Numbered from the stretch's first letter, positions 1-61,183 are shown. The stretch: DNA of 64,000 bases from Eubacteriales bacterium (GCA_045543955.1 JAZPYB010000009.1:1420-65419), one strand, 5' to 3'. Notes: a model not told the origin generated them from the letters alone. Program-made: numbers and translations.

Positions 1-171
1 ATGGATTTTAAAGAGATTGCCAAGGCGCTAAAGGACATAGAATATCAAGGAGAATTAACTCTTGAGGCTGACCAATACTTGGGCGCATATAATAAGGATA
101 ATGTTGCCCAGGGCGTTTGCGAGCTTGCCAAGAGTGCAAGAAGACTAGAAGAATTAATAAAGGAAGCATAA
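1..171 (+). CDS. 3' end of a sugar phosphate isomerase/epimerase-like (xylose isomerase-like TIM barrel) gene, truncated by window edge
   Basis: Frame +1 is open from base 1 to TAA at 169-171. The tail ...DIEYQGELTLEADQYLGAYNKDNVAQGVCELAKSARRLEELIKEA resembles C-termini of this fold. Family call is from memory only. Confidence 0.35.
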   Translation: MDFKEIAKALKDIEYQGELTLEADQYLGAYNKDNVAQGVCELAKSARRLEELIKEA

Positions 172-173
172 TT

Positions 174-1445
174 ATGATTATCTCAACTACTAAAGAAAAT
201 AGATGGCAAAATGGCAAGAGTGCCGACACTGGAATCAAACTAACCTTTGGCGAGAAAAAACAAAAAATCCGTGGCTTTGGCACTTGCTTTAGTGAGCTAG
301 GTGCAAAGGCATTGAACAGCCTTGACCCAAAGGAAAAAGAGAAGTTTTTAAACGAGCTTTTTGACTCTGACAAATGCAACTTTAACTACTGCCGTACACC
401 AATTGGAGCTAGTGATTTTTCACTTGATTTTTATTCATATAATGAAACAGATGGCGACTACGAGATGAAAAATTTCTCGATTGAACGCGACAAAAATCTA
501 CTTTTGCCACTCATAAAAGAGGGAGTTAAGCGCCAGCCAGATATGCAAATGTTTGCATCTCCTTGGTGCCCACCGCTATGGCTTAAAACTAAGAAAGCGT
601 ACTCAAGTGGAGTGTTTAACCCAACACCTGAAAATTACAAGGCTTATGCTCTTTATTTTAAGAAATATGTGGAAGCATACAAGGAAAATGGTGTCCCCCT
701 TGTACATATTCACCCACAAAATGAGCCTTGCTCAAATCAAATTTTCCCATCCTGCATTTGGACTGGCGAGAAGATGGCTGACTTTATCGGTGGTTATCTA
801 GGACCTTTGCTTGAGGGCACAGGCGTTGATATTTTCTTTGGCACAATAAACGGACCGGAAACTGACCATCGTTGGTCATATACAAGATACCACAACTACC
901 TAGGCTACGCAATGCAAGATGAAAAGGCTAGAAAATACATCAAGGGCGTTGGCTACCAATGGGCAGGCAAGTACGCACTTGACCAAACACGCGACGACTA
1001 CCCAGAGCTTGAAATCATTCAAACAGAGAGCGAATGCGGCGGTGGAGAGAACTCTTGGGAGCATATGATGTACATTTTTGAGCTTATGCGCCAATATTTT
1101 AGACACGGTGCATCCGCTTATGTATATTGGAACATCGCACTTGAGGGGGATTCCTCAAGCACTTGGGGCTGGTGCCAAAATTCACTTATGCACGTGGTTG
1201 ATGGAAAGCCAAACTACACCCCTGAATTTTACCTTATGAAGCACTTTGCACATTTCGTAAAGCGTGGCGCTCGTTACATAAGAATTAACGGCGAGTTTTC
1301 CAGTATGTGTGTTGCGTTTGAAAATCCAAATGGCGAAAAAATTGTCGTTGTATCTAACCCATATAAGACTGAAAAAGCGATAGAAATTGAGGGAAAAGCA
1401 TACACCCTGCCTGCCGAGTCTATTAATACAATTGTAATTGATTAA
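174..1445 (+). CDS. glycoside hydrolase family 30 (glucosylceramidase-like)
   Basis: ORF 117..1445 trimmed to ATG 174, preceded by AAGGAAG. Translation (GFGTCFSE, ASPWCPPLWLKT, HPQNEP, TESECG) matches the GH30 TIM-barrel pattern. Confidence 0.8.
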   Translation: MIISTTKENRWQNGKSADTGIKLTFGEKKQKIRGFGTCFSELGAKALNSLDPKEKEKFLNELFDSDKCNFNYCRTPIGASDFSLDFYSYNETDGDYEMKNFSIERDKNLLLPLIKEGVKRQPDMQMFASPWCPPLWLKTKKAYSSGVFNPTPENYKAYALYFKKYVEAYKENGVPLVHIHPQNEPCSNQIFPSCIWTGEKMADFIGGYLGPLLEGTGVDIFFGTINGPETDHRWSYTRYHNYLGYAMQDEKARKYIKGVGYQWAGKYALDQTRDDYPELEIIQTESECGGGENSWEHMMYIFELMRQYFRHGASAYVYWNIALEGDSSSTWGWCQNSLMHVVDGKPNYTPEFYLMKHFAHFVKRGARYIRINGEFSSMCVAFENPNGEKIVVVSNPYKTEKAIEIEGKAYTLPAESINTIVID

Positions 1446-1502
1446 TTTAGAAAATCACAACCGTATGAACAGGCGTTCTCGACTGTCCGTAGTAAAACAA
1501 AA

Positions 1503-1531
1503 ACGGAGAAAATATGCAAAGAACAAAATGG
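1503..1531 (+). pseudogene. displaced duplicate of the RBS plus first 6 codons of the downstream GH29-like gene
   Basis: ACGGAGAAAATATGCAAAGAACAAAATGG versus the functional TAGGAGATAATATATGCAAAGAACAGATTGG at 1599-1629. They share an exact 12-mer, ATGCAAAGAACA. The duplicate lies directly left of repeat copy A. Confidence 0.6.
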
Positions 1532-1577
1532 CTCCTTTGTGCAAAGGGAGCTGTCAACAGAGTTGACTGAGGGATTG
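1531..1577 (+). repeat. two-hairpin intergenic repeat, copy A
   Basis: GCTCC-TTTGTGCAAA-GGGAGC T GTCAAC-AGA-GTTGAC TGAGGGATTG. Same architecture as the copies at 6486, 7481, 14706, 61184 and 63220. Confidence 0.85.
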
Positions 1578-1611
1578 TTCATTAAAAGCGATGATTTTTA
1601 GGAGATAATAT

Positions 1612-2514
1612 ATGCAAAGAACAGATTGGTTTTACGAAGCAGGCTTTGGTATGTTTGTCCATTGGACAACAGCAACACTACCCGAAAAGGGAGAAAAAAA
1701 GGATTATCATCAGGCAGTCTTGGATTTTGACCTTGACACCTTTGTTTCGCAAATTGTATCAAGTGGCGCGAAATTTGTCTTTTTTACTGCCTCTCATTCC
1801 GAGATGCACCTGCCATTTCCACTTGACGAGCTTGACAAGATTTTACCAGACCACACCTCAAAGCGCGACTTGATTATGGAGCTTGCCGATGCTCTTGAGC
1901 CACACGGTATTAAGCTAATGCTTTACTTCAATGGTGACGGTTGTACAGACGAGCCTTGGCAAGAAGCAACCTATACCTACACAAACAGAGAAAGGCACGC
2001 AGAATACTGCTATAAAATTGCAGAAGCAATCTCTAAAAGATATGGCAAAAAAATCCACGGCTGGTGGATTGATTGCTGTTATGTAGAGGGGCTTTGCTCT
2101 GGTTATGGCACAAGCTATGACTTTGTGCGCTATGCAAAGGCATTGCGTTCGGGCAATCCCGACTCGATAGTTGCCTTTAATTTTAAAGGAATTGAGGAGT
2201 GGGACTGCGATTGGGGCAAGGGAATTTCCGACTACCAAGCAGGAGAGGAAAACTATATTACAAGATATCCAAGTGGTCGTTTTTCAGGCGAGGGTGACTT
2301 GCAATGGTTTAGCCTTTGCTGGATGGACGATTTTTGGGTGCACGAAAAAGAGGGAGAGCCAACGCCTCGCTATACAAACGAAGAGGTTCTTGACTATATA
2401 AACAAGGTAAGAGAGGGCGGAGGAGTCTTTGCCTATAATGTTGCCCCGTATCAAGAAGGGCACATTGCTCCCAAAACTGCCGAACAGCTAAAATGGATAG
2501 GAAAAATAATATGA
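1612..2514 (+). CDS. GH29-like (alpha-L-fucosidase family) glycoside hydrolase, short form
   Basis: 300-aa ORF with GGAG RBS. The N-terminus WFYEAGFGMFVHW resembles the GH29 catalytic-domain start. Assignment is tentative. Confidence 0.5.
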   Translation: MQRTDWFYEAGFGMFVHWTTATLPEKGEKKDYHQAVLDFDLDTFVSQIVSSGAKFVFFTASHSEMHLPFPLDELDKILPDHTSKRDLIMELADALEPHGIKLMLYFNGDGCTDEPWQEATYTYTNRERHAEYCYKIAEAISKRYGKKIHGWWIDCCYVEGLCSGYGTSYDFVRYAKALRSGNPDSIVAFNFKGIEEWDCDWGKGISDYQAGEENYITRYPSGRFSGEGDLQWFSLCWMDDFWVHEKEGEPTPRYTNEEVLDYINKVREGGGVFAYNVAPYQEGHIAPKTAEQLKWIGKII

Positions 2515-3107
2515 TAAAAGTATTTAATGGGGGTCTGCTTGACTCAAATACCTATGTTTATTCAACTGATACGGCTCACGCTATGATAATTGACTTTGGA
2601 GTACCACTTGAAAAGGTTAAGGAATACGTGGATGAAAATAATCTAACAGTTGACTATTTAATTTCAACCCACGGGCACTATGACCATATAAATTACGTTG
2701 GCGACTATAAAAAGGAATACCCAAATGCTAGTCTTATTTGCCACGAAAAAGAGCTTGAGCTAATTCGCGACCCCGAGGGCAATTTGTCGCTCTACTTTGG
2801 GCTTTATAATTCCTATGATGTAGGCTATACAGCAGTAAAGGACAATGATATTGTTTCACTAAAAAACGGTGGTGAGAGTGCCGATTTTTCTATTCTTCAC
2901 GCACCGGGACACACAAGTGGCTGTATGTGCCTTTATAACGAAAAGGAAAAAATAATGTTCACAGGAGACGTCCTTTTTGCAGAGGGCTATGGGCGAGTTG
3001 ATTTAAAATACGCAAGTCCTAGTGATATGATAAAATCACTAAACAAGCTTTATACCTACAAGGGCGTTAAAATTTACCCGGGGCACGGTATCTCCGGAAT
3101 AATATAA
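2511..3107 (+). CDS. MBL-fold metallo-hydrolase (hydroxyacylglutathione hydrolase-like)
   Basis: ATGA start/stop overlap with the upstream gene. HGHYDH (HxHxDH) motif and a later PGHT motif. Confidence 0.8.
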   Translation: MIKVFNGGLLDSNTYVYSTDTAHAMIIDFGVPLEKVKEYVDENNLTVDYLISTHGHYDHINYVGDYKKEYPNASLICHEKELELIRDPEGNLSLYFGLYNSYDVGYTAVKDNDIVSLKNGGESADFSILHAPGHTSGCMCLYNEKEKIMFTGDVLFAEGYGRVDLKYASPSDMIKSLNKLYTYKGVKIYPGHGISGII

Positions 3108-3136
3108 AAGAAAAAGGAGGCAAATAGCCTCCTTTT

Positions 3137-4003
3137 TTATTGCTTAAAATCCTTACGATACTTAGTTGGAGTAATACCAAATTCACTCTTAAATATCTTG
3201 GTAAAAAAGTTGTAGTCATTGTAGCCACAGCGCGATGAAATCTCTTGTATAGATAACTCACTGTTAAGTAATAAATCAATAGCTAACTGCATACGTAATT
3301 TAATTATATACTTAGTAGGAGTAGTACTCATATACTTTTTGAAATGCAAATTATATGTTGTCATACACATGCTTTCCATTTGAGCAAGGTCTGTTATTTT
3401 TATATTTTCACTAAAGTTTTCGTTTAAATATCTAACTGATTTATGTAGTCGTCCTGTGCCTGTGCCCTCGGTTGATAAGACTCTTGCAATCTCAATTAAA
3501 ACCCTGTCGCAAAGAGCAGATAAGTCCTCATCTCTAAAGTCGTCTTTTATAGCAAATGCGTCAAATAATGTTTTGAATCTTGCGTCAATGTGGTTGTTTA
3601 TGCTAATTTTGTGAATGTGTGGGAAAAGGTGTAGCTTATATTTTTCAAGCAAAGCACCAGCCTTGCTGCCGGTAAAATGTAGCCAGAAAAACTGCACATT
3701 TTGTTCACCCACTATACATCTATAATTGTATGAGGTTTTTGGTGGATAAATTATCAAATCTCCACTTGATAATTTTGTAGTCGATTCGGTATCAAAAAAC
3801 TCTATTTTGCCGGAAACCAAGTAAATTAAGTAATAATCAAGTCGCCCTTTCGGGTTTATATTTGTGTGGTTGTAGTTAGCATTAACATATCCAGCACAGT
3901 TGACAACCAAAGGGGCAGATAAATCCTCACGGCTACCAAAATTCAAATCCTTGTAGTCGAATTTTTCATTAATTGGATTTAAATAATGAGAAAATGTTTT
4001 CAT
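3137..4003 (-). CDS. AraC family transcriptional regulator
   Basis: ORF trimmed to ATG at 4003, which follows GGAGG. N-terminal cupin-like sensor domain plus C-terminal double HTH (YNLHFKKYMSTTPTKYI...FGITPTKYRK). Confidence 0.85.
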   Translation of the reverse strand: MKTFSHYLNPINEKFDYKDLNFGSREDLSAPLVVNCAGYVNANYNHTNINPKGRLDYYLIYLVSGKIEFFDTESTTKLSSGDLIIYPPKTSYNYRCIVGEQNVQFFWLHFTGSKAGALLEKYKLHLFPHIHKISINNHIDARFKTLFDAFAIKDDFRDEDLSALCDRVLIEIARVLSTEGTGTGRLHKSVRYLNENFSENIKITDLAQMESMCMTTYNLHFKKYMSTTPTKYIIKLRMQLAIDLLLNSELSIQEISSRCGYNDYNFFTKIFKSEFGITPTKYRKDFKQ

Positions 4004-4125
4004 TTTTTCCTCCACCGAACGTCAAATAATACTAAAATTCCGTTAAAGTCTACCTTTTATTGTGTTTTATAATATTGTACCATATAAATGTGCAAATGTC
4101 AAATAATTTACAAAAGGAGAAAATT

Positions 4126-6402
4126 ATGAAAAAGAAACTTCTATTTAGCTTAACCTTGATTTGTCTATTTGTTTTTCTTTTCACCCTAGCTATAAGTGCT
4201 GAAGAGAAGAACCAATATGTTGAATTCAAGGTAATGCTTGCTGGTGATACGGAATACACAACCGTTTACACCGTAAACAGCCACGATACTTGGAACCCGG
4301 GTATAACTATGTCCTACGATTTTTATACCGATTCCGAAAGAACTGCTGTTCTTGACAAAACTCAAATAGTTATACTTGATTTGTCAGAGCCTGTGGTTCA
4401 TACACTTGATGCATCAGCAGCTCCGCTCAGAAAATCAACTATTACTAGATTGGTAGGAGATGCAAATAATCCTTTAACCAATGTTACTCACATTGCTTTA
4501 CCGCTGATCGTTGATAGCGTGCCAAATAATATGTGTAAGAATTGGACATCACTTACAACAGTTGACTTTGGTGGTGCAAATAAAATTGGTGACAACGCAT
4601 TTGAAAACTGTACATTTACTGAATTTACAGTTCCCGAGCAAATCACACAGTTCAACAACAACGCATTCAAAGGCTGCGCTAATTTGCAAAAGCTGACAGT
4701 TCTCGGCAATGCAAACTTTGGCTCCGCTGTTTTCCAAAATTGTACGTTACTGACTGACGTAAATCTTGTTCAACCAAAGCTTATTGGTGGCAGCATGTTC
4801 CAGGGCTGTTCAAGCCTTGCTGAAATTACAATTCCGGAGGGCACAACTGAAATAGGCAATTGTGCTTTTATGGGAACAAAAATTGCTTCGCTCCACATAC
4901 CATCAACAGTAACAAAAATCGGTTATCAGGTTGCAGAGGAGGTAACAACACTCAAATCCCTTACATTTGCTGAAAATAGCCAATTAACAACTATCTCACA
5001 CCGTACATTCCAAAAATCAGGCTTGGTCGGCGAGATTGTTTTGCCTGAAGGTCTTACTAAAATTGATTACAGTGCATTTACAAGCACAGCAATAACATCG
5101 GTTAAATTGCCAAGCACCTTGACAACAATAGGAGATAGCGTATTCCAAGGCTGTACCGGTCTTACCGAGGTTACAATCCCTGATACAGTTACATCCCTTG
5201 GCACAAGTGCTTTCCAAAACTGTTCAAATCTTGAGGCTGTAAACATTTCTGCAAGCTCTCAAATTAGCAACAGATGGGTAAGCATTTTTAGAGGCTGTAC
5301 AAAGCTTGAAAGTGTTTTTGTTCCACCACTTGTTACAGAAATTGGATATGACAACTTCTGGGACTGTAAGGCTCTTACAGAAATAACATTCTCTGAGGGA
5401 CTTACAAAAATTTCTGGTGGTAACAACTTTAATAATTGTGAAAAGCTTACAAAGTTAGAATTTCCAAACTCACTTGAAACAATTGGGGGCGGAAATATTA
5501 ACCATTATATCAAGGAAATCAGATTTGGTAATAGCCTTACAACCTTGGGTGATGGTGCTTTAACAAGTAAGGCACTTGAAAAGGTATATCTCCCAGCTTC
5601 TCTTACAAGCATAGGTGCTCATATTCTTGGTTATTCAAACGCTAATGACTCCTCAACTAATATTACCTTTATCTTCACAGGTACAAAAGCACAAGCAGAG
5701 GCACTTCAGTTAGCCCTTAAAGAATATACAGAAGCAAATGCGTCAGGACACGTGCCGAATAGCTCAAAGTTCTATGATGCAGCTCTTGTTTCAGCAACAG
5801 AATATGATGCCGATACAACAGCACCAAGTGGCTATCACTTAGTTTACGATTATAGTGCTTGCAAGGCGTTCTATAAGGATGCTCACGTTGACAAAGCACC
5901 AACCTATGACTTCTGTGGTCAAAAATACATTTCAGATCTTTATTCATATACAGCCTGTGAAAGATGCACAGTAGTTAAGGAAGCTAAGGCTGCAAACGCT
6001 GTTTTTGTATCAAGAGGCTACTCAATAAACGAAAACGATAAGGACAGCTTTGTATTCGATGTTGTAGTTGACTTTGAGGCTATGCAAACCTATTATGAAA
6101 AGGCAGGAGCAACAGAGGAGCTTAGCTATGGTCTTGCATTGTCAGGCAACACATCATTGGCAAGCCTAATCAATGCAGACGGAACAGTGGTTGATGAAGG
6201 TAGTGTTTTAAAGGTTGATTTCTACGATACAAATTATACAAAGATTCAAATCAAGATAAACAACATCAAAACCGAAGCAAACAAGGCAACAAAGATATTT
6301 GCTTGTATGTATGTTATCGAGAATGGCGCTGTAAAATATATTGGTAATGGTGTAACAACCGACATACCCGAAGCAGTTTGCTATAACGACTTAGTTGAAT
6401 AA
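4126..6402 (+). CDS. secreted BspA-type leucine-rich-repeat surface protein with conserved C-terminal module
   Basis: ATG 4126 follows AAGGAGA. Signal peptide MKKKLLFSLTLICLFVFLFTLAISA. Many ~23-aa repeats of the form IPxxVTxIGxxAFxxCxxL. The C-terminal ~240 aa are paralogous to the 15261..16772 product. Confidence 0.85.
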   Translation: MKKKLLFSLTLICLFVFLFTLAISAEEKNQYVEFKVMLAGDTEYTTVYTVNSHDTWNPGITMSYDFYTDSERTAVLDKTQIVILDLSEPVVHTLDASAAPLRKSTITRLVGDANNPLTNVTHIALPLIVDSVPNNMCKNWTSLTTVDFGGANKIGDNAFENCTFTEFTVPEQITQFNNNAFKGCANLQKLTVLGNANFGSAVFQNCTLLTDVNLVQPKLIGGSMFQGCSSLAEITIPEGTTEIGNCAFMGTKIASLHIPSTVTKIGYQVAEEVTTLKSLTFAENSQLTTISHRTFQKSGLVGEIVLPEGLTKIDYSAFTSTAITSVKLPSTLTTIGDSVFQGCTGLTEVTIPDTVTSLGTSAFQNCSNLEAVNISASSQISNRWVSIFRGCTKLESVFVPPLVTEIGYDNFWDCKALTEITFSEGLTKISGGNNFNNCEKLTKLEFPNSLETIGGGNINHYIKEIRFGNSLTTLGDGALTSKALEKVYLPASLTSIGAHILGYSNANDSSTNITFIFTGTKAQAEALQLALKEYTEANASGHVPNSSKFYDAALVSATEYDADTTAPSGYHLVYDYSACKAFYKDAHVDKAPTYDFCGQKYISDLYSYTACERCTVVKEAKAANAVFVSRGYSINENDKDSFVFDVVVDFEAMQTYYEKAGATEELSYGLALSGNTSLASLINADGTVVDEGSVLKVDFYDTNYTKIQIKINNIKTEANKATKIFACMYVIENGAVKYIGNGVTTDIPEAVCYNDLVE

Positions 6403-6410
6403 ACAAAAAA

Positions 6411-6436
6411 AGAACCTCATATGAGGTTCTTTTTTA
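6411..6436. terminator. bidirectional intrinsic terminator
   Basis: AGAACCTCAT/ATGAGGTTCT perfect palindrome, flanked by an A-run and a T-run. Confidence 0.75.
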
Positions 6437-6482
6437 CTTGTTGTTAACCAAATCGTCGAGATTGATTTTTACAAACGCAGGG
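6434..6482 (-). pseudogene. displaced duplicate of the GH43 gene 3' end (PAFVKINLDDLVNNK-stop)
   Basis: 45-nt alignment to the functional end at 6538-6582 with 6 mismatches, all synonymous third-codon positions, plus one extra Lys codon. Homology stops at the left edge of repeat copy B. Confidence 0.75.
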
Positions 6483-6485
6483 TAG

Positions 6486-6532
6486 CCTCCTTTGTGCAAA
6501 GGGAGGTGTCAACGCAGTTGACGGAGGGATTG
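6486..6532 (+). repeat. two-hairpin intergenic repeat, copy B (archetype)
   Basis: CCTCC-TTTGTGCAAA-GGGAGG T GTCAAC-GCA-GTTGAC GGAGGGATTG. Confidence 0.9.
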
Positions 6533-6537
6533 AAAAA

Positions 6538-7398
6538 TTAATTATTAACTAAATCGTCAAGATTTATTTTTACAAACGCTGGGCGTTCATTCGGCGTATC
6601 ATTAGGCTGATGGAAAACGAAATTATCGTTTCCTTGCAGGTCTTTAAAAATCATACCGTGGCCACCGTCTTTTTCGTAAATGAGCTTATCATCAATTGTC
6701 CATTTGCCAAGAATTGAGCCGCTCTCGCTTCTCGCAATAGCCTCACAATATTCGCCCTTGTAAAAGCTTGACCAAATAGAGAGAAGTGTGCCGTTGTGCT
6801 TTACTAAAAACGGGCCATCGGTAACATAAGCACCGTAATCTCTTATGTCGTGTTTCCAAGAAGCATCGCCTGCCGCCCAAAGCTCAAATGGCTTTCCAAC
6901 CGGATGCGTTAAATCCTTTGATAATTCAACGGCACACACTGTGCCATTTTTTATTTGAGTCCACTCGTGGCAGAAAATCATATATGGGGTATCGCCTTCT
7001 AAATAAAATGTCCCGTCAAGGCAGTACCAGTCGGCAGGAGTAATAAATCCACTTGAGTGCAATGTAAACTTGCCGTCTGGTTTATTTGATACCAAGATAG
7101 CAGTGCCGCGAGGTGCGTTTTCCGGATGGAATGTGGCAAACATATAGAATTTTCCGTTGTATTTATGCACCTCAGGTGCCCAAAAGTCTTTAACACCTAT
7201 AAAGCCATCATAATATTCAAACACAGGAATTGGTTCACTCCAGTTTTCTAAGTCCTCGCTTACATATACGTCAAAGCCAAAGTCATATTTTGTGCCACAG
7301 TTTCCCCAAGTATATTTAGCTCTTGTACCGTACATATAATATTTGCCCTCGTGTGTCAAGATAAAAGGATCGCGTATATTGATATCACTTAATTTCAT
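6538..7398 (-). CDS. glycoside hydrolase family 43 (arabinofuranosidase/xylosidase-like)
   Basis: 286 aa with GGGAGA RBS. N-terminal IRDPFIL and five-bladed propeller-like repeats typical of GH43. Confidence 0.85.
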   Translation of the reverse strand: MKLSDINIRDPFILTHEGKYYMYGTRAKYTWGNCGTKYDFGFDVYVSEDLENWSEPIPVFEYYDGFIGVKDFWAPEVHKYNGKFYMFATFHPENAPRGTAILVSNKPDGKFTLHSSGFITPADWYCLDGTFYLEGDTPYMIFCHEWTQIKNGTVCAVELSKDLTHPVGKPFELWAAGDASWKHDIRDYGAYVTDGPFLVKHNGTLLSIWSSFYKGEYCEAIARSESGSILGKWTIDDKLIYEKDGGHGMIFKDLQGNDNFVFHQPNDTPNERPAFVKINLDDLVNN

Positions 7399-7480
7399 TT
7401 TTTCTCCCTGATTTATTGAAAAATTTTTATCAGCTAAAGTGCAGAACTTCTTGATTAGTTCAATTTTTGGGGTCTACCTA

Positions 7481-7524
7481 CCTCCTTGTAAAGTGAGGGA
7501 AATCACGTTAGTGATGGAGGGATT
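7481..7524 (+). repeat. two-hairpin intergenic repeat, copy D (variant stems)
   Basis: CCTC-CTTGTAAAGT-GAGG GAA ATCAC-GTTA-GTGAT GGAGGGATT. Hairpin 2 has a different sequence but the same fold. Confidence 0.75.
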
Positions 7525-7569
7525 TTGTCTTGTATATTTCGAGAAAATAGATTCAGATAAAATGAATAT

Positions 7570-8694
7570 TTATTTCCTTCTTTCTACAAAATCCTTTAAA
7601 ATTTCTGGGATTTTAATATTTTGTGGGCAAACAGCTTGACAAGCACCACAGGAAAGACAAGCGTTTGGTCGCTTGTTTTCCGGCAAGGAATTTAAGCTCA
7701 TACCAACAATAAATCCACCACCGGAGAAAACCTGCTCGTTGTAAAGGGATATTAGCTTTGGAATGTCAAGCTCCATAGGGCAGTATTCCGTACAGTAGCG
7801 ACAAGATGTGCATGGCACACACGCAGTCATTTTTCTGCCAAGCGCCAAGACCTTTTCAAATTCCTCACTGTCAAATGGCTTGAATTCTTCAAAGGTTTTA
7901 ATATTTTCCTTAATTTGCTCAAGGCTAGACATACCAGAGAGGGTAACCAAAGCCTCGGGAATTGATTGAATGAATCTGAATGCAAACGAAGGCGCAGTTT
8001 CATCTTCGCGTATAGCCTTTAAATCGGCTAGCTCGTTTTCGTTCAAATTAGCAAGTCTGCCACCGCGCACCGGCTCCATAACCCAAATTGGAATATTTAG
8101 CTTTTTTAGATAATCAACCTTAGCCTTTGCATCTTGAAATTCATAGTCGAGATAGTTTAATTGAATTTGGCAAAACTCCATATGCTCGCCATACATATCT
8201 AAAAACCTTTTGAAATTCTCAAAGGTTGCGTGGGTAGAGAAGCCTAAATGCTTAATTCTGCCGTTTTTCTTTTGCTCAAGTAGATATTCAACTGTTTTAT
8301 ATTTAGGGTCTAAATAATACTCTATATTAGCCTCACAAACATTATGTACAAGATAAAAATCGAAGTAGTCAACCTGACATTTTTTTAATTGCTCCTCGAA
8401 AATCTCGGCAACCTTGCCCATATTGTTAACATCATAGCCTGGGAATTTAGTTGCCAAATAAAAGCTCTCTCTTGGATAGCGCGCTAGGTTTTTACCAACA
8501 ACAAGCTCACTCTTGCCCATATGATAACCCCAAGCAGTGTCAAAATAGTTAACACCGTTTGCAAAAGCATAGTCAAAAATCTCGGCAGTCTTTTCCTCGT
8601 CTATTTTTGATGAATCCCCATCAATTGTAGGGAAGCGCATTGTGCCAAGCCCAAGTGCAGACAATTTTAGCCCCTTAAAATCTCTGTAAATCAT
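7570..8694 (-). CDS. aldo/keto reductase with C-terminal 2x[4Fe-4S] ferredoxin-like domain
   Basis: Trimmed to MIYRDFKGLKLSALGLGTMRF (ATG 8694). AKR barrel, then CTSCRYCTEYCP and CLSCGACQAVCP motifs. Confidence 0.85.
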   Translation of the reverse strand: MIYRDFKGLKLSALGLGTMRFPTIDGDSSKIDEEKTAEIFDYAFANGVNYFDTAWGYHMGKSELVVGKNLARYPRESFYLATKFPGYDVNNMGKVAEIFEEQLKKCQVDYFDFYLVHNVCEANIEYYLDPKYKTVEYLLEQKKNGRIKHLGFSTHATFENFKRFLDMYGEHMEFCQIQLNYLDYEFQDAKAKVDYLKKLNIPIWVMEPVRGGRLANLNENELADLKAIREDETAPSFAFRFIQSIPEALVTLSGMSSLEQIKENIKTFEEFKPFDSEEFEKVLALGRKMTACVPCTSCRYCTEYCPMELDIPKLISLYNEQVFSGGGFIVGMSLNSLPENKRPNACLSCGACQAVCPQNIKIPEILKDFVERRK

Positions 8695-8753
8695 AATTGC
8701 TCCTAATAATATCTTGATAATTTTATTATAGCACCTTTGATTTTTCAATGCAA

Positions 8754-9443
8754 CTAATTCTTTTGATATTTCTCCATTCGCTTCCAACTAATAAATCCAT
8801 AAATATCGTTTGCCAAGAACATTACAAAGCAGAGAATCATTGGAATATACGACGGATTTTCAATGGAAGCCAGCACCCAAAGAATAATCAAAACAATGTC
8901 GTTTGCCGAATAGCCTATTGCGTAATACGGGCTTCGCATAAAGGTCATATAAACAGCTAAAAAGCTAGTGGTTACAGATATTGTGCTAAAGATAAGATTT
9001 TCAGTTCCAAGTGCCTTTAAAATAAAATAGAATATAGCTGTTACAATGGCGGTAAAGAAAAGCATTAAAGCAATTTGCTTTTTTGTCATTTTGTGAACTT
9101 TTACTGTTTTGGTGTTATTGTATGGGTTGCGAGCCCAAGAAATAATGGCTAAAATTGCCATCGGTGCACTCATACCAAGATAAGTAATCATTTCTCCATA
9201 ATATCTAAAATGGAAGGAAATAATGCCATAAAAAACCGCGAAAACAACACAAAGCGCTTGACCTATCACATACCCCTTGGCAACAAAAATAAGAGCCGTA
9301 ACACCGACTAAAGAAGCCGAAAGTGTTAAATAATCCTTTTCGGGCACGCAAAGAAAGGAAATGGTAACTACAATAAGCGAGGCAATCCACAAGGCGCGCT
9401 CAAAAATTGTTAAATCCTTAAAGGGATTAGAAATCTTTTTCAT
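8754..9443 (-). CDS. pnuC: nicotinamide riboside transporter PnuC
   Basis: 229 aa, 7-8 TM segments, WARNPY and ANDIxLIxLW-type motifs, AAGGAAG RBS. Confidence 0.8.
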   Translation of the reverse strand: MKKISNPFKDLTIFERALWIASLIVVTISFLCVPEKDYLTLSASLVGVTALIFVAKGYVIGQALCVVFAVFYGIISFHFRYYGEMITYLGMSAPMAILAIISWARNPYNNTKTVKVHKMTKKQIALMLFFTAIVTAIFYFILKALGTENLIFSTISVTTSFLAVYMTFMRSPYYAIGYSANDIVLIILWVLASIENPSYIPMILCFVMFLANDIYGFISWKRMEKYQKN

Positions 9444-9554
9444 ATAATCTTCCTTTTATAAGCCACAAAAAAATAGAGCACTTTTATGTATCTTCAAAGA
9501 CCTAACGATACACAAAAATGCTACCCGGTGGCAGTTTTTATTTTTTCTGAAACA

Positions 9555-9583
9555 ATTATAGCACCTTGATAATTATTTGTCAA
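9555..9583 (-). promoter_or_regulatory. sigma-A type promoter of pnuC
   Basis: Minus strand reads TTGACA, 17 nt, TGC-TATAAT (TG-extended -10). Lies about 105 nt upstream of the start codon. Confidence 0.6.
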
Positions 9584-9592
9584 TAAAAACTA

Positions 9593-9621
9593 TTGCAAAG
9601 ACAATTTTTTTGTGATATACT
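9593..9621 (+). promoter_or_regulatory. sigma-A type promoter of tRNA-Ser
   Basis: TTGCAA, 17 nt, TGA-TATACT. The tRNA starts about 19 nt downstream. Confidence 0.55.
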
Positions 9622-9639
9622 ATCTAGGCTAATAAATTT

Positions 9640-9731
9640 GCAGGATTACTCAAGTGGTTTAAGAGGCGTGACTCGAAATCTCGTAGGGCGTTAATAGCGT
9701 CGCCTGAGTTCAAATCTCAGATCCTGCGCCA
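9640..9731 (+). tRNA. tRNA-Ser (anticodon CGA), type II with long variable arm, CCA encoded
   Basis: Acceptor GCAGGAT/ATCCTGC. D stem CTC/GAG. Anticodon stem CGTGA/TCTCG with loop CT-CGA-AA. ~21-nt variable arm. T arm CTGAG-TTCAAAT-CTCAG. Discriminator G plus CCA. Confidence 0.9.
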
Positions 9732-9735
9732 AAAA

Positions 9736-9766
9736 ACCGACAAGCTGTTTGGCTTGTCGGTTTTTA
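9736..9766. terminator. intrinsic terminator (serves tRNA-Ser and the convergent transporter gene)
   Basis: ACCGACAAGC-TGTTTG-GCTTGTCGGT followed by TTTTT. An A-run lies on the other side. Confidence 0.8.
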
Positions 9767-9777
9767 TTTGTTTTACC

Positions 9778-11691
9778 TTATATAGTTTTTGGCAAAGCAT
9801 ATTTTTGCGAATAGCTACTATAAAGCTCGTTGAAGTTTTTGCCACCCGCCTTTATTTCACGAACAGATTCGTGAAGGTTTAGATTGTCATTCGCTGTGTC
9901 GATTATACAAGCAGCAATGTTTGAGCAGTGGTCAGCTGTTCTTTCAAGATTGGTAAGAATATCAGACCAAACAAAGCCGGCAGAAATAGAGCAGTTGCCC
10001 TGTTGTAAACGATAAATATGTCTTGTTCTTAGCTGTTCCTTTAGCTCGTCCACAACCTGTTCAAGCGGTTCAATTTTATAAGCAATGCTTAAATCATTTT
10101 TAGAGAATGCCTCAAGGGAAAGGTCAAGTATTTCTCTTACTGCATCACTAAGAACTACAATTTCAGCCTTGGCATTGTCGGAGAATTCAATTTCCTTTTC
10201 CTTCATTTCCTCAGCTGACTCAACTATGTTGACTGCGTGGTCGGAAATTCTTTCAAAGTCGCCGATTAGTCTTAGTAGCTTAGCAGTTTCATCACCCGAT
10301 TTTTCATTGATTTGATGACTGCTGAGCTTGACAAGATACGTTCCTATAACGTCCTCATAGTGGTCGGTTTTGTCTTCAATTTTTCGTATGCTTTCTGCAT
10401 CCTCCTTTGAATAGCTAATAAGCGAGGACAAGCTGGTATCAAGTGCACCGATTGCATCCTTTGCCATTGTAACAGTTGCATCACGGCAAACGCCAAGAGC
10501 AACAGCAGGAGTATTTAAAAGTCTTTCGTCAATAACAAGCTTGTTTTCCTTTTCGTCATTTCCCTCTGGCATAATCTTGTATGCAAGCTTTTCAAGAAGG
10601 TTGGCACAAGGAAGCAGGATAAGTGTACCGATAACGTTAAAGAGAGTGTGCATTGTAGCAATGCTGATTTGTGTTGCACCATCGTCCATTATAGGAATTA
10701 GCTTTAAGAAGTAAATGAATATGTAGAATGCGATGAGCATTATAGTAGTGCCGATAATATTAAAGGCCAAGTGAACAATAGCAGTTCTCTTACCATTTTT
10801 ATTAGCACCTGCTGAAGAGAGAACAGCAGTTATACAAGTACCGATATTCTGACCCATAATAATAGGTAAGGCAACGCCGTTTGTAATTCCAGAGCCTGCA
10901 GTTGCAGCAAGCGCTTGAAGAATACCAACAGATGCAGATGAGGACTGAATAATAGCTGTGAAAACAGCACCGGCAGCCACAGCCGCAATTGGCGCAAACC
11001 AGCCAAGAGGTGTACCCTCACCAAAGAATGCAAAGACCTTATTTACAACAGAGTTTATTGCCGGCGTATTTGCAGAATCTGACATAATAGTCATACCAAA
11101 CATAAGTGTAGCAAAGCCGAGCAAGATCATACCGATGTCCTTTTTTCTGCTCGATTTGGAAACCATATAAAGAACTAAGCCAATAAGAGCAAGAATAGGA
11201 ACAAATGTATCAGGCTTGAAAAACTTTAGCAAAAAGCCTGCCTCACTTGGGATTTGGTCAAGGGATAAAATCCAAGCAGTGATTGTTGTACCAACATTTG
11301 CACCCATTATTACGTGAATTGCTTGTCTTAGAGTCATAAGGCCCGAGGTAACAAAGCCAACAACCATAACAGTGGTAGCAGATGAGGATTGAATAACCGA
11401 GGTAACGACCATACCTGTTAAAAAGCCGAGCATTTTGTTTGATGTGAATTTTCCAAGCAATGCTTGAAGCTTATTACCGGCAGCCCTTTCAAGCGACTCG
11501 CCCATTACGTTCATACCGAACATAAAAAGGCAAAGACCACCAAGCAGGGTAAGAACCGAGAAGCCTATACTGTCCATAAAGCTTTCAATTCCGTCAAGGC
11601 CGAATACAGCTGCGCAAATAATTATCGCAATTAACAGAGTAGCTATAACGCCTATGCTTGAAAACATAATTATACGTTTTTTCTTTGTCAT
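9778..11691 (-). CDS. Na/Pi cotransporter family protein with C-terminal PhoU-like domain
   Basis: Trimmed to MTKKKRII (ATG 11691). Duplicated QSSSAT/QSSSAS motifs in the TM region. Helical PhoU-like tail. Confidence 0.85.
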   Translation of the reverse strand: MTKKKRIIMFSSIGVIATLLIAIIICAAVFGLDGIESFMDSIGFSVLTLLGGLCLFMFGMNVMGESLERAAGNKLQALLGKFTSNKMLGFLTGMVVTSVIQSSSATTVMVVGFVTSGLMTLRQAIHVIMGANVGTTITAWILSLDQIPSEAGFLLKFFKPDTFVPILALIGLVLYMVSKSSRKKDIGMILLGFATLMFGMTIMSDSANTPAINSVVNKVFAFFGEGTPLGWFAPIAAVAAGAVFTAIIQSSSASVGILQALAATAGSGITNGVALPIIMGQNIGTCITAVLSSAGANKNGKRTAIVHLAFNIIGTTIMLIAFYIFIYFLKLIPIMDDGATQISIATMHTLFNVIGTLILLPCANLLEKLAYKIMPEGNDEKENKLVIDERLLNTPAVALGVCRDATVTMAKDAIGALDTSLSSLISYSKEDAESIRKIEDKTDHYEDVIGTYLVKLSSHQINEKSGDETAKLLRLIGDFERISDHAVNIVESAEEMKEKEIEFSDNAKAEIVVLSDAVREILDLSLEAFSKNDLSIAYKIEPLEQVVDELKEQLRTRHIYRLQQGNCSISAGFVWSDILTNLERTADHCSNIAACIIDTANDNLNLHESVREIKAGGKNFNELYSSYSQKYALPKTI

Positions 11692-11808
11692 ATTTTTCTC
11701 CTTTTTGTGTGATATTTGCATCACAAAATACAACTACATTTTATCATTTTGTGTCGAAACTAAAAACCATTAGACAGTAAAGCCTATGTAAATTTAGTGT
11801 AAAGGAAA

Positions 11809-11831
11809 AGCGAGATGACTAGCATCTCGCT
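11809..11831 (-). terminator. intrinsic terminator after the histidine kinase gene
   Basis: AGCGAGATG-ACTA-GCATCTCGCT, with a T-rich tract on the minus strand. Confidence 0.65.
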
Positions 11832-11835
11832 TATA

Positions 11836-13530
11836 TTATTTTTTAAATACGACCTTGATAGTAGTACCAACATCAAGCTCGCTTTCAATCTCTAGCGTTG
11901 CACCATAAAGCGCACAAATATGCTTGACGATAGCAAGACCAAGACCGGTGCCCCCTGTCTTTTTTGAGTGAGATTTGTCAACGCGATAAAAGCGCTGGCA
12001 GAGCATAGGAATATGCTTTTTGTCAATTCCAATTCCCGTGTCGGAAATTGAAATGGTTGCACTCTCTTCATTTTCTGAAAGCTCAACCCTAATGCTGCCA
12101 TTTTGCTTGTTATAGTTAACTGCGTTAGAACAGAGGTTGGAGGCAATCTCGTATATCTTTTTCGGGTCAGCGGATATTGTTGCATTTCCTATTAATTCAT
12201 ATGAAATATTTTTTTGCTCCATTTTTTCGCTAAGCTCGTCAAAAGCCTCTTTAAATGTGTCACCAAGATTTATATTTATTGACAGTAGCTCAGGCTCCTC
12301 GCCTCTTTCTAGGCGGCTGAGCTTTAGCATATCGGAAATTAAAGAGCCTAGACGTATGCTTTCCTTGTGGATTCGTTCAACTCGCTTAGCTGTTGCCGCG
12401 CTTATTTCCTCGTCCCCAAGCAAAAGCTCGGAAAGACCTTGCATGACAGTGATAGGAGTTTTTAATTCGTGTGAGGCATTAGCAAAGAATTCACTTTTTT
12501 GCTTAGCAATTAAGCGCTCGTTTGTAATATCGGTAATTATTATAATCGAGGAGATTTTGATATCGTCCTTTGCCACCTCGTGCGTGGTTATGGCAAGGTA
12601 TCTGTCGTGTAATTTGAATTCAATTGTGGCATTTTCAGAAAGATGCTCGGAAATCTTATTATAAAGCTCCACATTGTCGATAAGCTCAAGTAAGCTTTTG
12701 CCAGATTTAAAGGTGCTATCTAAAATCGTTGTCGCACTTTTGTTAGCAAAAACTGCTTCGCCCTTATCGTTTATAGCAATAATGCCTTGAGAAATATTTT
12801 CAAGGAGCTTGTTTAGCTTTTTGTGCTCACGCTCCATTTCTCGTATGTGCGCGTGTGTGCTTTCATTAAGCTCGTTTATCTCGCAAAGCACCGAGTAAAA
12901 TTCAGGCTCGCTTGCCTTTGCTTCAATAGGCACGTATTCGCCCTTGTTTAAGCTCTTTAGGCTATTTCCCACCTTGACAATTCTTTCGGAAATTCCAAGG
13001 GATAAAAAGTGAGAAATTATAATAGAGAGAACAAGCGCAACGAATAAAACGACTATGAGAAGTGGCAAAATAAGTGTCAAATATGAAGAAATCTCACTGC
13101 TTCTGATGGCAAGTCTTAAAATTACGGTTTTGCCACTATCAAGCTTAACCTTCATTGCGTAATACGTCATTTCACAATCAAATGTTTCGGAATATCTTTT
13201 AATGGTTTTTGGGGTGTCGTTTAATGCATTTTGAAACTCCTCACGGTCCAAGTGATTTTCAAGCTCACCACGTGTATCACTTTCCAAAAGCACATTACCA
13301 TTTGTATCAAAAATAGTAACACGGAATTTGTCATTTCCCTCGTAAACCTTAAATTCGTCAAATTCGCCCTCGTCGTTCAGGAGCAGAGCAACGATTTTTG
13401 TTTCCTCAATAAGCCTTTCTGTCATCATCTTTTCAGCATTCAGCTTAATTGCCAAAAAGCCAAAAATAAACATAAGAAGGGTAGAGGCAAGAGTTACTGC
13501 AAAGAATCTAAAAAATATTTTTCTTTTCAT
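11836..13530 (-). CDS. sensor histidine kinase (PhoR-like)
   Basis: Two TM segments, PAS-like region, H-box SHELKTP, and N/G1/G2 ATPase boxes (NAVNY, DTGIGI, GGTGLGL). Confidence 0.85.
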   Translation of the reverse strand: MKRKIFFRFFAVTLASTLLMFIFGFLAIKLNAEKMMTERLIEETKIVALLLNDEGEFDEFKVYEGNDKFRVTIFDTNGNVLLESDTRGELENHLDREEFQNALNDTPKTIKRYSETFDCEMTYYAMKVKLDSGKTVILRLAIRSSEISSYLTLILPLLIVVLFVALVLSIIISHFLSLGISERIVKVGNSLKSLNKGEYVPIEAKASEPEFYSVLCEINELNESTHAHIREMEREHKKLNKLLENISQGIIAINDKGEAVFANKSATTILDSTFKSGKSLLELIDNVELYNKISEHLSENATIEFKLHDRYLAITTHEVAKDDIKISSIIIITDITNERLIAKQKSEFFANASHELKTPITVMQGLSELLLGDEEISAATAKRVERIHKESIRLGSLISDMLKLSRLERGEEPELLSININLGDTFKEAFDELSEKMEQKNISYELIGNATISADPKKIYEIASNLCSNAVNYNKQNGSIRVELSENEESATISISDTGIGIDKKHIPMLCQRFYRVDKSHSKKTGGTGLGLAIVKHICALYGATLEIESELDVGTTIKVVFKK

Positions 13531-14192
13531 TTTGTCTCGTAGCGATAACCAATGCCACGCACGGTTACAATGCTATCCTCTCCGCCAGCCTGTTTGATTT
13601 TTTCACGCAGGGAAGCAATATGCATATCAATAGTTCTTGTTTCTCCAATGTAGCTCTCGCCCCAAACCTCACGGAAAAGCTCCTCACGTTCAATAGTAAT
13701 TCCTGCCTTGCTAATAAGTAGCTTTAGGAGCAAAAATTCCTTCATTGTAAGACCAAGGTCCTTGCCCTCAAAAAATATTTTATAAACATTGTTGTCAACA
13801 TTAAATCCGTCAGCCTTAGTTATATATAGGTTAGCACGTCTTAGGTTGGTTTTGACTCTTGCTAAAAGCTCCATAATGGAAAATGGCTTTGCCATATAGT
13901 CGTCAGCGCCCTTGTTTAGCCCCTTTACAAAGCTGATTTCATCACTTTTTGCACTAACTATAATTACAGGCACACGTTCATCAAGCTGTCTAATTTTGGA
14001 AAGAATAGTATATCCATCCATATCGGGGAGCATTATATCTAGAATTACAAGGTCAGGTCTTTTGAGCGAAAACTCAGCTAAAAAATCAGTGCCGTTTTCA
14101 AAGAACATAGTTTTGTAGGTGTCCTCAAATGCGCCCTCATAAACCTCGCAAACACCCTCATCGTCCTCGACAATATAAATAAGTGATTCCAT
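13527..14192 (-). CDS. OmpR/PhoB-family response regulator
   Basis: Receiver domain (DLVILDIMLPDMDG) plus winged-helix C-terminus (VRGIGYRY). 4-nt overlap with the kinase gene. Confidence 0.9.
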   Translation of the reverse strand: MESLIYIVEDDEGVCEVYEGAFEDTYKTMFFENGTDFLAEFSLKRPDLVILDIMLPDMDGYTILSKIRQLDERVPVIIVSAKSDEISFVKGLNKGADDYMAKPFSIMELLARVKTNLRRANLYITKADGFNVDNNVYKIFFEGKDLGLTMKEFLLLKLLISKAGITIEREELFREVWGESYIGETRTIDMHIASLREKIKQAGGEDSIVTVRGIGYRYETK

Positions 14193-14320
14193 AAAGCCTC
14201 CTAATTGTGATATATTGACAATTATACATAATAATTATACCATAGTGTGAAAATCAAATCAACAATTCATTTGTCAAGCCTTTGTAAATTTTATAAGCTC
14301 TTAAAAACAAGCAAAATCTG

Positions 14321-14349
14321 TTGACACGTGTCTGGTTTTGTGGTAAAAT
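14321..14349 (+). promoter_or_regulatory. sigma-A type promoter
   Basis: TTGACA, 17 nt, TGG-TAAAAT. Lies 28 nt upstream of the DUF1292 start. Confidence 0.6.
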
Positions 14350-14376
14350 ATAAAAACAAAGGAAAGGACGGAGACT

Positions 14377-14628
14377 ATGGCTAACAATAAGAATTTTCTT
14401 ACATTTGAAAATGAAGACGGGACAGAAAGCGTATATGAGCTTGTTGCTGAGTGCGAAATAAACGGAAATACCTATGTTGCCGTTACCCCAACTGAATATT
14501 ACGTCCTTAAAAAAATCAAATCAGGCAAAAAGGAAGATACCTATGTGCCGGTCGACGGCGAGGAATTAAACAAGGTTTGCCCGATTTTTGATGCAAAAAT
14601 TAACATTATCGACCACGATAATGAATAA
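14377..14628 (+). CDS. DUF1292 domain-containing protein
   Basis: 83 aa, GGACGGAG RBS. The pattern FENEDGTESVYELVAECEINGNTYVAVTP is typical of DUF1292. Confidence 0.7.
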   Translation: MANNKNFLTFENEDGTESVYELVAECEINGNTYVAVTPTEYYVLKKIKSGKKEDTYVPVDGEELNKVCPIFDAKINIIDHDNE

Positions 14629-14705
14629 TTGAGGCATTTAATACATAAACTAGTTTTACTTTGAGGTATCAACCATTTAAAACGGCATCAAAGCTTGTGG
14701 CTAAG

Positions 14706-14750
14706 CCTTCTCAAGTGGGAGAAGGTGTCAACGCAGTTGACGGATTAGGT
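14706..14750 (+). repeat. two-hairpin intergenic repeat, copy C
   Basis: CCTTCTC-AAGTGG-GAGAAGG T GTCAAC-GCA-GTTGAC GGATTAGGT. Confidence 0.85.
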
Positions 14751-14847
14751 GTACAAAGGCGTTACTAAAATTTAATAATTAAAACCTGCTATGTTTGTGA
14801 TAGAGTGATGTATTCGAGCTACACTTATTAAAAGGAGTCTTATATCC

Positions 14848-15035
14848 TATACCGGTGTGCAGGCCTCCTATCCCCTCCTCTTAATGAGACAAAGGTCGGA
14901 CGAGGGCAAGATAGATGTTGGAAGCAGAAAAGGTATTATGCGGACACCACCTTGTTTAGAACAAGGTTCAAATGGTTATTCTACACGGCACGGTGGGCTA
15001 AAAATAAAAGAATGCCCCTATAAAGGGGCTTTTTA
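14848..15035 (+). ncRNA. candidate structured RNA of unknown class, ending in an intrinsic terminator
   Basis: GC-rich island in an AT-rich spacer. Helices visible by eye: CTATCCCCTC/GAGGGcaaGATAG, ACCTTGTT-TAG-AACAAGGT, and ACCG-GTGTG pairing with CACAC..CGGT near the ends. Terminator GCCCCT-ATAA-AGGGGC plus TTTTT at 15014-15035. The 5' boundary is uncertain. Confidence 0.3.
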
Positions 15036-15159
15036 TATTTAACTAAAAATGCTCAAATTGTAAAGAGAACTTTGTTATATAGTTATTAAAAATATGCTTT
15101 TTTTGTTTAAAATGCGCAAAAATAGAATTTTTATAATTTGTTAAAAAATACAAAAATTG

Positions 15160-15196
15160 TGCAACCTGCCAAAAACATGCTAGGTTGCATTTTTTT
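15160..15196 (+). terminator. intrinsic terminator-like hairpin directly upstream of the LRR-2 promoter
   Basis: TGCAACCT, 14-nt loop, AGGTTGCA, then T7. Confidence 0.55.
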
Positions 15197-15197
15197 G

Positions 15198-15226
15198 TTT
15201 ACATTTCAAGAATTTTGTGATAAAAT
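15198..15226 (+). promoter_or_regulatory. sigma-A type promoter of LRR surface protein 2
   Basis: TTTACA, 17 nt, TGA-TAAAAT. Confidence 0.55.
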
Positions 15227-15260
15227 TATTATGTATAAATATTATTTAAGGAGAAAAATT

Positions 15261-53875: not shown

Positions 53876-53884
53876 AGGAGCCTC

Positions 53885-61163: not shown

Positions 61164-61183
61164 GTTTGATTGTAAGTCTAAAG

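Follow-up and report, generated by a model that had tools for sequence, protein, structure and literature searches.

Two synonymously diverged ends of a GH43 gene flank a REP-like repeat in an Eubacteriales genome

Results

A relic GH43 gene end beside a REP-like repeat

A 64,000-nucleotide (nt) stretch of DNA from an Eubacteriales bacterium (GCA_045543955.1 JAZPYB010000009.1:1420-65419), hereafter the window, was analyzed. It contains a gene for a GH43 glycoside hydrolase whose 3' end is present twice, as a working end and as a relic, on the two sides of a short repeat resembling the repetitive extragenic palindromes (REPs) of bacteria. The features of the locus are as follows.

4060-6402, plus strand: LRR_5 gene
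6406-6435, no strand assigned: bidirectional intrinsic terminator common to the LRR_5 gene and the original GH43 end (13-bp stem, T-runs on both strands)
6434-6481, minus strand: relic GH43 3' end in its native position beside the terminator, 15 codons (PAFVKINLDDLVNNK) and a stop
6483-6532, plus strand: REP-like copy B, 50 nt, consisting of TAG, hairpin 1, hairpin 2 and a purine tail (fold -9.2 kcal/mol, z -2.7)
6485-6507, plus strand: hairpin 1 of copy B (CCTCCTTTG/CAAAGGGAGG), variable
6508-6522, plus strand: hairpin 2 of copy B, GTCAACGCAGTTGAC (GTCAAC-GCA-GTTGAC), conserved
6523-6532, plus strand: purine tail of copy B, GGAGGGATTG, Shine-Dalgarno-like
6533-6537, plus strand: 5-nt spacer AAAAA between the repeat tail and the functional GH43 stop codon
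6538-6582, minus strand: functional GH43 3' end, repeat-linked and synonymously recoded, 14 codons (PAFVKINLDDLVNN) and a stop
6538-7398, minus strand: GH43 glycoside hydrolase gene (286 aa; homologues with PF04616, the best at 87% identity)

A repeat search of the window returned the two ends as a direct-repeat pair (6441-6482 and 6542-6583; 88% identity, spacing 101). Short-range direct repeats occur only twice in the 64 kb, around copy B and around another copy of the repeat, A. The 42-nt stretches of the two GH43 ends differ at six bases, each at a third codon position and each synonymous (cca/cct, ata/atc, ctt/ctc, tta/ttg, aat/aac and aat/aac; from relic to functional end, t>a, c>a, c>t, g>a, c>t and c>t), and their longest identical run is 14 nt. 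Homology is limited by the stop codon on one side and by the left edge of the repeat on the other, where GGG is followed directly by TAGCCTCC. The relic stop codon lies 2 nt from the terminator. The first-pass annotation of this DNA had noticed these features, and alignment and translation bear it out on the six silent mismatches, the intact frame with its stop beside the shared terminator, and the exact coincidence of the homology limit with the repeat edge. The relic and its peptide, placed there at 6434-6482, are confirmed as well, with the correction that the relic ends at 6481; position 6482 is one base past the frame.

Three repeat-free relatives (L043, L128 and L001; L numbers denote comparison loci) have empty sites, in which the terminator is followed directly by the GH43 stop codon. 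They share the gene order GH30, fucosidase-like, lactamase_B, AraC and LRR_5, followed by the convergent GH43 gene. Relative to these sites, the window holds about 101 nt of extra DNA, consisting of the repeat, the spacer and a second gene end. Because the terminator directly precedes the GH43 stop in the repeat-free relatives, it is the relic that occupies the native position of the gene end. The relic also retains a 15th codon (K) that is kept by all close homologues and is absent from the functional end, and its GC content at third codon positions (7/14) is typical for the gene; that of the functional end (2/14) falls in the lowest 2% of the gene's 14-codon windows. Terminator context, 15th codon and third-position GC content are indirect evidence for the relic as the probable resident end.

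Synonymous divergence and the decay of a duplicate

The simplest account would be a target-site duplication made by transposition, after which the relic decays neutrally, the functional copy stays under selection, and the synonymous pattern arises by chance. Such an event would place the relic and the functional end as direct repeats around the element, as observed, and it would fit the nonsense and missense changes of some relics in relatives (R1 of L091 and R1 of L127). We simulated this null with copies that start out the same, a relic that drifts neutrally, and selection that lets only synonymous changes into the functional copy. For copy B, the probability that six of six changes are synonymous was 0.0014-0.0016, and that six of six fall at third positions was 0.0034. 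The window and two independent single-repeat loci of relatives gave the following values.

Window B: six differing codons, all at the third position and synonymous; P about 0.0015
L066: three differing codons, synonymous, including Ser AGC/TCA; P = 0.09
L044: four differing codons, synonymous, including Arg AGA/CGT, Leu TTA/CTA and stop TAA/TGA; P = 0.009

The product over the three loci is about 1e-6. Since several of the changes in L066 and L044 are not confined to third positions, synonymy itself is the signal, and the Ser and Arg codons switch family and keep the amino acid. The synonymous-only pattern at the GH43 gene of the window is not due to chance. The variable overlap lengths and the agreement of relic codons with the functional codons of repeat-free relatives, both described below, also speak against a simple duplication. 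We therefore regard a neutrally decayed target-site duplication, against which the first-pass annotation had argued from copy B, as very unlikely.

Alleles of a sugar-kinase gene with and without the repeat

The species of the window has no close relative in the databases (GH43 best 87%; protein identity 87-90%), and the comparison of alleles, proposed on first inspection for the GH43 gene, was therefore made at the sugar-kinase locus of relatives. In repeat-free L134, L135/136 and L137 (92-94% protein identity), the working kinase gene ends in ...gga agc gga cg./aga.... The repeat-bearing L066, L130-132 and L133 keep this codon type (gga agc gga, Ser-AGC) in the relic, and their working ends, linked to the repeat, read ...tca gga cgc... 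or ...tct ggt cgc... (Ser-TCN). The recoded TCN-type end is present only beside the repeat. The three relic alleles differ from one another only synonymously, and the DNA past their stop codons is unalignable. The kinase relic resembles a resident end that was in use until recently.

The kinase proteins of L130 and L133 are identical, and their genes differ at 10 of 1026 nt, with three scattered differences and seven, all at third positions, within 987-1014. In this recoded patch, 7/28 bases differ, the rest of the gene is 99.7% identical, and the 700 nt upstream of the gene are 98.6% identical. The clustering sets the repeat-linked end apart as a discrete patch that has had a separate history. 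Together with the repeat-free functional codons in the relics, it upholds the earlier proposal that both ends had evolved under selection.

The junction between the kinase relic and the repeat varies in position, in the codon at which the relic starts, and in the filler it carries (caa, tcacg or ttggat). These junctions suggest that the joint between relic and repeat is illegitimate and has no site-specific core.

Recurrence at other gene termini

Related loci (~1 Mb) were covered by a screen anchored on gene ends and by reading of the syntenic loci; generic screens for short-range direct repeats over the same ~1 Mb were swamped by repeat arrays and repeat proteins. The same layout was found at five further gene termini, and at the single-repeat 3' loci the differences were synonymous, as would be expected from the first-pass annotation, which had called for such relics to be sought.

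L066: end of a sugar-kinase (kdgK-like) gene, single-repeat relic locus
L044: end of a pyrI-like gene, single-repeat relic locus
L091: end of an esterase-like gene, array of repeat plus relic with a 97-nt period
L127: end of the GH43 orthologue, three tandem copies
L125 and L129: start of a DUF6472 gene, a three-unit array in L125

The polarity is constant at every locus: hairpin 1 directly adjoins the relic, and the tail faces the working gene, with a spacer of 0-23 nt in between. In the DUF6472 array of L125, the repeat tail GGAGG is the ribosome site of the restored gene. The overlap, that is, the duplicated terminus, ranges from about 21 to 67 nt, and the bases preceding the repeat are only loosely G/T-rich. 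At copy B, in L066, L130 and L133, and in L044, homology between relic and functional end stops at the stop codon. Orthologous ends beside intergenic DNA that has diverged would be expected to show this limit, and a staggered cut would not yield it.

A relic-to-functional start distance of 96-101 nt at four independent short-repeat loci (copies A and B of the window, L066, L091, and the A locus of L127) raised the possibility of a ~100-nt insert acting as a mechanistic ruler, with shorter overlaps paired with longer spacers. The distances of 84 nt in L125 and 151-156 nt with long-hairpin variants contradict it, and the agreement may be chance.

A relic might instead be kept by selection, as a coding sequence reached by read-through or bypass, as a regulatory element or as a homology arm. 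In L066, one reading frame runs from the functional end across the repeat into the relic, interrupted by no stop besides the gene's own, and the purely synonymous differences among the three kinase relic haplotypes would also fit. The L066 relic is the only one of this kind; the read-through frame is lost in the window, L130, L133 and L044. Moreover, both copies encode the same peptide, to which a second copy adds nothing, and relics in arrays have acquired nonsense and missense codons (tgg>tag and cgt>tgt in R1 of L091; three missense codons in R1 of L127). Such decay after formation means that relics are not generally under protective selection, and we hold this explanation to be highly improbable. 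An assembly artefact merging two strain alleles might be suspected, as many of the sequences compared come from assembled metagenomes. Collapsed alleles would not end up in tandem with a repeat between them, and the architecture recurs in independent assemblies and samples (L125 and L126; L130, L131 and L132; L066; L044; L091; L127; L129), so that an artefact is scarcely credible.

Copy A and a relic gene start

Copy A lies at the 5' end of an alpha-L-fucosidase-like gene.

1506-1531, plus strand: relic start of the alpha-L-fucosidase-like gene (ribosome-binding site, ATG and initial codons, MQRT..), directly beside hairpin 1 of copy A
1531-1577, plus strand: REP-like copy A (91% identity to copy B, same orientation; DNA fold -9.3 kcal/mol)
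1578-1629, plus strand: spacer and, after it, the ribosome-binding site and start that the fucosidase-like gene uses (open reading frame (ORF) 1612-2514; PF01120 homologues)

The relic consists of the native ribosome-binding site, the ATG and 4-5 codons, and the working site and start follow 23 nt past the tail of copy A. The A site is empty in L001, L128 and L129, and L001 shows that the relic equals the native upstream context. Orthologues of copy A are present in L125/L126 and L127. The gene start could be misannotated because of the relic start, which opens a short ORF running into copy A and ending at the TGA in GACTGAGGG (window 1506-1629). In the orthologous A-locus repeat of L125 (8720-8790), a 25-nt insertion is nested within hairpin 1. 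The 5-kb segment between the direct copies A and B was considered as an excised cassette and rejected, as the flanks yield no sensible product.

The repeat family

Five copies of the repeat are present in the window, against 0.09 expected. Besides A and B, these are the following, all without flank duplication.

14705-14750, plus strand: REP-like copy C, just upstream of a 6S RNA gene
61183-61228, plus strand: REP-like copy D
63218-63264, minus strand: REP-like copy E, with an orthologous copy in L012

The 21-nt repeat core was found in more than 116 stretches of GTDB genomes among the matches listed, and its carriers among these matches are mostly uncultured Clostridia, Christensenellales and Eubacteriales from the gut of ruminants and humans, besides some Anaerovibrio. 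Compensatory changes in hairpin 1 are seen across the family alignment, and the hairpins fold with z scores of -2.7 to -3.1. As seen in longer copies (L093, L047, L053, L108 and L030), the full unit is an inverted doublet of two half-units, and that of L093 folds into one long hairpin (-38.6 kcal/mol, z -9.2). The window copies are single half-units with no second terminal repeat. Many family copies start with (G)TAG, and copy B reads GGTAG/CCTCC; the flank is mostly TAG, AAG or TTG followed by CC, with GTAG in some copies only. No Rfam family matched the repeat at gathering or permissive thresholds in the window and 16 loci, where 6S RNA was the only match. Scans of metagenomes and viruses for the A/B subfamily gave 0, 2 and 0 matches, none of them informative.

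REPs and their doublets that form hairpins (REPINs) are associated with REP-associated tyrosine transposases (RAYTs). RAYT-like ORFs with a Y1_Tnp domain were found in relatives (26.2 bits in L129, cut-off 23; 22.4 bits in L125). They encode 161-168 aa with the motifs NHVHLI and YYDHIIRN (L129 10916-11401 and L125 9739-10245; also L023 and L018) and sit between the fucosidase-like and lactamase_B genes, a place where the window has none. No cognate RAYT gene flanked by these repeats was found in the window or at the relatives' loci, and membership in the REP/REPIN class is incomplete for this reason. We class the repeat as a REP-type extragenic palindrome, one half of the doublet in a REPIN-like family that uncultured gut Clostridia (Christensenellales-like) carry in abundance.

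The RAYT-like genes, the constant polarity, and the frequent (G)TAG start of hairpin 1, as in GTAG-type REPs, could be taken to favor site-specific integration at a defined core, in which a small element carries a replacement terminus and a RAYT or other recombinase acts in trans. The loci share no common core, and both junction and filler vary within the same gene; an identical core at the same position, as in a phage attachment site (attP), is not seen, the kinase relics starting at different codons. Moreover, the targets are unrelated genes hit at 5' and 3' ends alike. No recombinase is encoded by the large ORFs of the window from 1 to 16.8 kb, as the first-pass annotation had noted: Pfam searches with all large ORFs at 117-16772 returned GH30, fucosidase-like, lactamase_B, AraC, LRR_5, GH43, aldo/keto reductase, transporters and a two-component system. 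Thus, site-specific integration appears quite unlikely, and the attP-like carriage of a replacement terminus, to which the arrangement had been likened, is not supported, given the variable junctions, fillers and overlaps of about 21-67 nt.

Some further observations concern the repeat. Downstream of the kinase gene, hairpin 2 reads GTCAGCTTTGCTGAC or GTCGGCAAAGCCGAC in the orthologous repeats of L130 (~2560-2575) and L133 (~1785-1800); the loop is inverted with a compensatory stem change, like a hairpin flip-flop. ORFs with DUF559 (Vsr-like endonuclease) start 3-20 nt past the repeat tail, which serves as their Shine-Dalgarno site (L116 ~3980-3770, minus strand; L097 6495-6701; L102; L122 5026-5232), and hairpin 2 (GAAGTTGACGG) resembles their 'EVDG' codons. 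The 6S RNA (Rfam RF00013, 58.4 bits) at 14780-15003 on the plus strand lies ~30 nt downstream of copy C; in L079, the repeat and 6S RNA are ~3 kb apart.

Other features of the region

Small GIY-YIG genes (~90 aa) with flanking direct and inverted repeats of their own occur in relatives at differing intergenic sites of the same syntenic block (L001 11143-11418, L003 7031-7303, L127 6312-6587), which suggests a second, independent small mobile element. A link to the REP-like element was considered and rejected, since the repeats belong to a different, unrelated family. The window has one weak GIY-YIG-like tblastn match (40944-41186). A tandem pair of ~1.06-kb units, with about 72% identity to each other, lies at 52973-54904; these are probably tandem paralogous genes.

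Discussion

By analogy with the kinase locus and from the statistics of its own mismatches, the GH43 relic and the functional GH43 end appear to be two alleles joined at the repeat. We propose that they are orthologous ends from two diverged lineages, joined at the repeat edge with no target-site duplication, and we put the probability of this reading at about one half (0.5). The apparent duplication would then exist because the ends of two alleles overlap, and the differences would be confined to synonymous ones because each end had remained functional up to the event. The constant polarity, the sharp repeat boundary, and the variable filler junctions and overlaps fit a one-sided recombination and not a transposase duplication or an attP core.

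The process may have run as follows. In one lineage, a repeat would have stood just past the stop codon of the gene. A segment comprising this repeat, the spacer, the gene end and some of the gene body, and ending at the outer edge of hairpin 1, would have met a repeat-free allele. On the gene-body side, ordinary homologous recombination would make the join; on the repeat side, the join would be illegitimate and fall inside the last 27-67 nt of the other allele's gene. Such a process would be a form of homology-facilitated illegitimate recombination in which the edge of the repeat provides the DNA end. Its product would read gene body, incoming end, stop, spacer and repeat, joined to resident end, stop and terminator. 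The donor tract may extend beyond ~100 bp, further into the gene or downstream. From then on, nothing would keep the relic from decaying, and the tandem arrays could be built by unequal crossing-over of the relic with the functional end. The edge of hairpin 1 might become a DNA end by the cut of an HUH/Y1 enzyme of the RAYT type (one that could, in addition, link a 5' end with a 3'-OH) or through protection of a single-stranded end by the hairpin. The first-pass annotation had proposed that an incoming segment replaced the resident gene end. Its two-allele part is supported; the direction of transfer and the enzymology, namely, that the functional copy is the incomer in the window, that the transfer took place between cells, and that the hairpin-1 edge is a true DNA end, are what we infer.

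Several observations weigh against this reading. At the 5' A locus, the relic matches the functional start of its own genome in three genomes with differing N-termini, and concerted evolution or within-lineage events are therefore needed. The youngest relics of the arrays (L091 and DUF6472) are nearly identical to the functional end, so some copies arise in situ. Unequal crossing-over or repeated within-lineage events can explain both the 5' match and the arrays. The 14 residues of the GH43 tail are the same in both copies, although the tail varies among homologues of 84-87% identity; the donor must therefore have been fairly close. The donor configuration, a recoded end with the repeat directly after its stop and no relic, was not recovered among the relatives. 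With no close relative of the window's species found, the GH43 locus of the window settles neither the donor lineage nor the direction of transfer. Regarding the enzyme, the window gave no RAYT match, and the RAYT-like ORFs of L129 and L125 lie 3-13 nt from neighboring genes and have no flanking repeats.

The in situ origin of some copies leads to another explanation, in which the terminus is duplicated in place, by a long and variable target duplication or by template switching at a stalled fork, and each copy is later overwritten separately by recombination. The functional end would be altered through imports of the gene body, and the relic through imports of the downstream flank from repeat-free strains, so that both copies look selected with no special transfer of the repeat. 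The near-identical young array relics would be copies born from the resident gene; the kinase relics, which differ synonymously only and match repeat-free alleles, would be expected, and the breakpoint of L130/L133 in the last 40 nt of the kinase gene indicates that recombination does end there. This explanation does not account for the restriction of the TCN-type end to neighbors of the repeat, for the stop of homology at the stop codon at every 3' locus, or for the differing junction position and filler between relic and repeat within one gene. Moreover, no known mechanism of REP/RAYT or IS200/IS605 gives target duplications (PMC2817692). We consider it unlikely.

In a broader form of the two-lineage reading, REP half-units would stand at the head of segments by which 20-70 nt at the start or end of genes are replaced across lineages, the hairpin-1 edge being made by a RAYT or protected by the hairpin and then joined to the terminus of the resident gene. 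This generalization is tentative, and we lean against it more than for it. If true, REPs would spread horizontally as cassettes of repeat plus gene terminus, with no recombinase of their own, and leave former gene ends behind as fossils; the attached foreign gene end would be the source of homology.

REPs and REPINs are among the commonest bacterial repeats, and their mode of movement is still unsettled. A relic terminus at one edge of a repeat and a silently recoded terminus at the other form a testable footprint of repeat arrival, and this footprint suggests that diverged lineages recombined, the edge of the repeat serving as a DNA end. Such loci can also mislead annotation through false start codons and short ORFs upstream of the gene and through pseudo gene ends. 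The relic arrays are a record of earlier gene termini, usable for dating events and for tracking recombination in uncultured gut bacteria.

Comparison with known systems

The repeat resembles the REP/REPIN-RAYT system in that short, GC-rich, imperfect palindromes are present in many copies, mostly extragenic and beside gene ends, that inverted doublets fold into one hairpin, that many, though not all, copies start with (G)TAG, and that relatives carry Y1_Tnp genes. It differs in having two hairpins and a Shine-Dalgarno-like tail per half-unit, and in its flanks: REPs overlapping ORF ends or annotated N-termini have been described (PMC3733652), whereas described REPs and REPINs are not reported with duplicated gene termini as flanks. 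In the REP/RAYT literature searched, we found no description of duplicated, synonymously diverged gene termini at REPs, in agreement with the first-pass annotation, which had known of none. According to that literature, larger target duplications do not arise with IS200/IS605-type elements (PMC2817692). Vertical inheritance is described for REPINs (bioRxiv 10.1101/2022.05.22.493013), whereas the repeat-linked gene ends of this family suggest movement between lineages.

Two other types of element were considered and rejected. In the case of a DDE transposon or a miniature inverted-repeat transposable element with a fixed target-site duplication, the variable overlaps, the synonymous-only divergence and the half-units lacking a second terminal repeat do not fit. 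In the case of a diversity-generating retroelement, the mismatches are not adenine-specific, and no reverse transcriptase is found among the neighboring ORFs.

Phage 21 and e14 at icd, and genomic islands at the 3' ends of tRNA genes, carry a replacement gene terminus in attP. The likeness lies in the outcome, because the gene takes an incoming, synonymously diverged terminus and the resident terminus becomes a relic past the inserted DNA. Here, by contrast, only ~55 nt separate the two ends, there is no integrase and no conserved core, the filler junctions vary, and both 5' and 3' termini of unrelated genes are hit.

REPs of enterobacteria undergo gyrase-linked illegitimate recombination, and Shyamala et al. 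reportedly found, in 1990, REP-mediated join points of tandem duplications there. As in the present family, REPs are preferred joints for rearrangements with little or no homology. The enterobacterial events are kilobase duplications between two REPs of one genome, unlike the 27-67-nt overlaps of gene ends from diverged alleles proposed here. The closest parallel in process is homology-facilitated illegitimate recombination, said to have been described in naturally transformable bacteria by de Vries and Wackernagel and by Prudhomme et al., both in 2002. The variability of the junctions and the patch boundary of L130/L133 are consistent with it, with no donor genome identified. On our reading, both would share a homology anchor on one side, an illegitimate joint with filler or microhomology on the other, and a diverged donor; they differ in that the joint in this repeat family always falls at the same edge of the hairpin repeat and that the outcome is an overlap and not a deletion.

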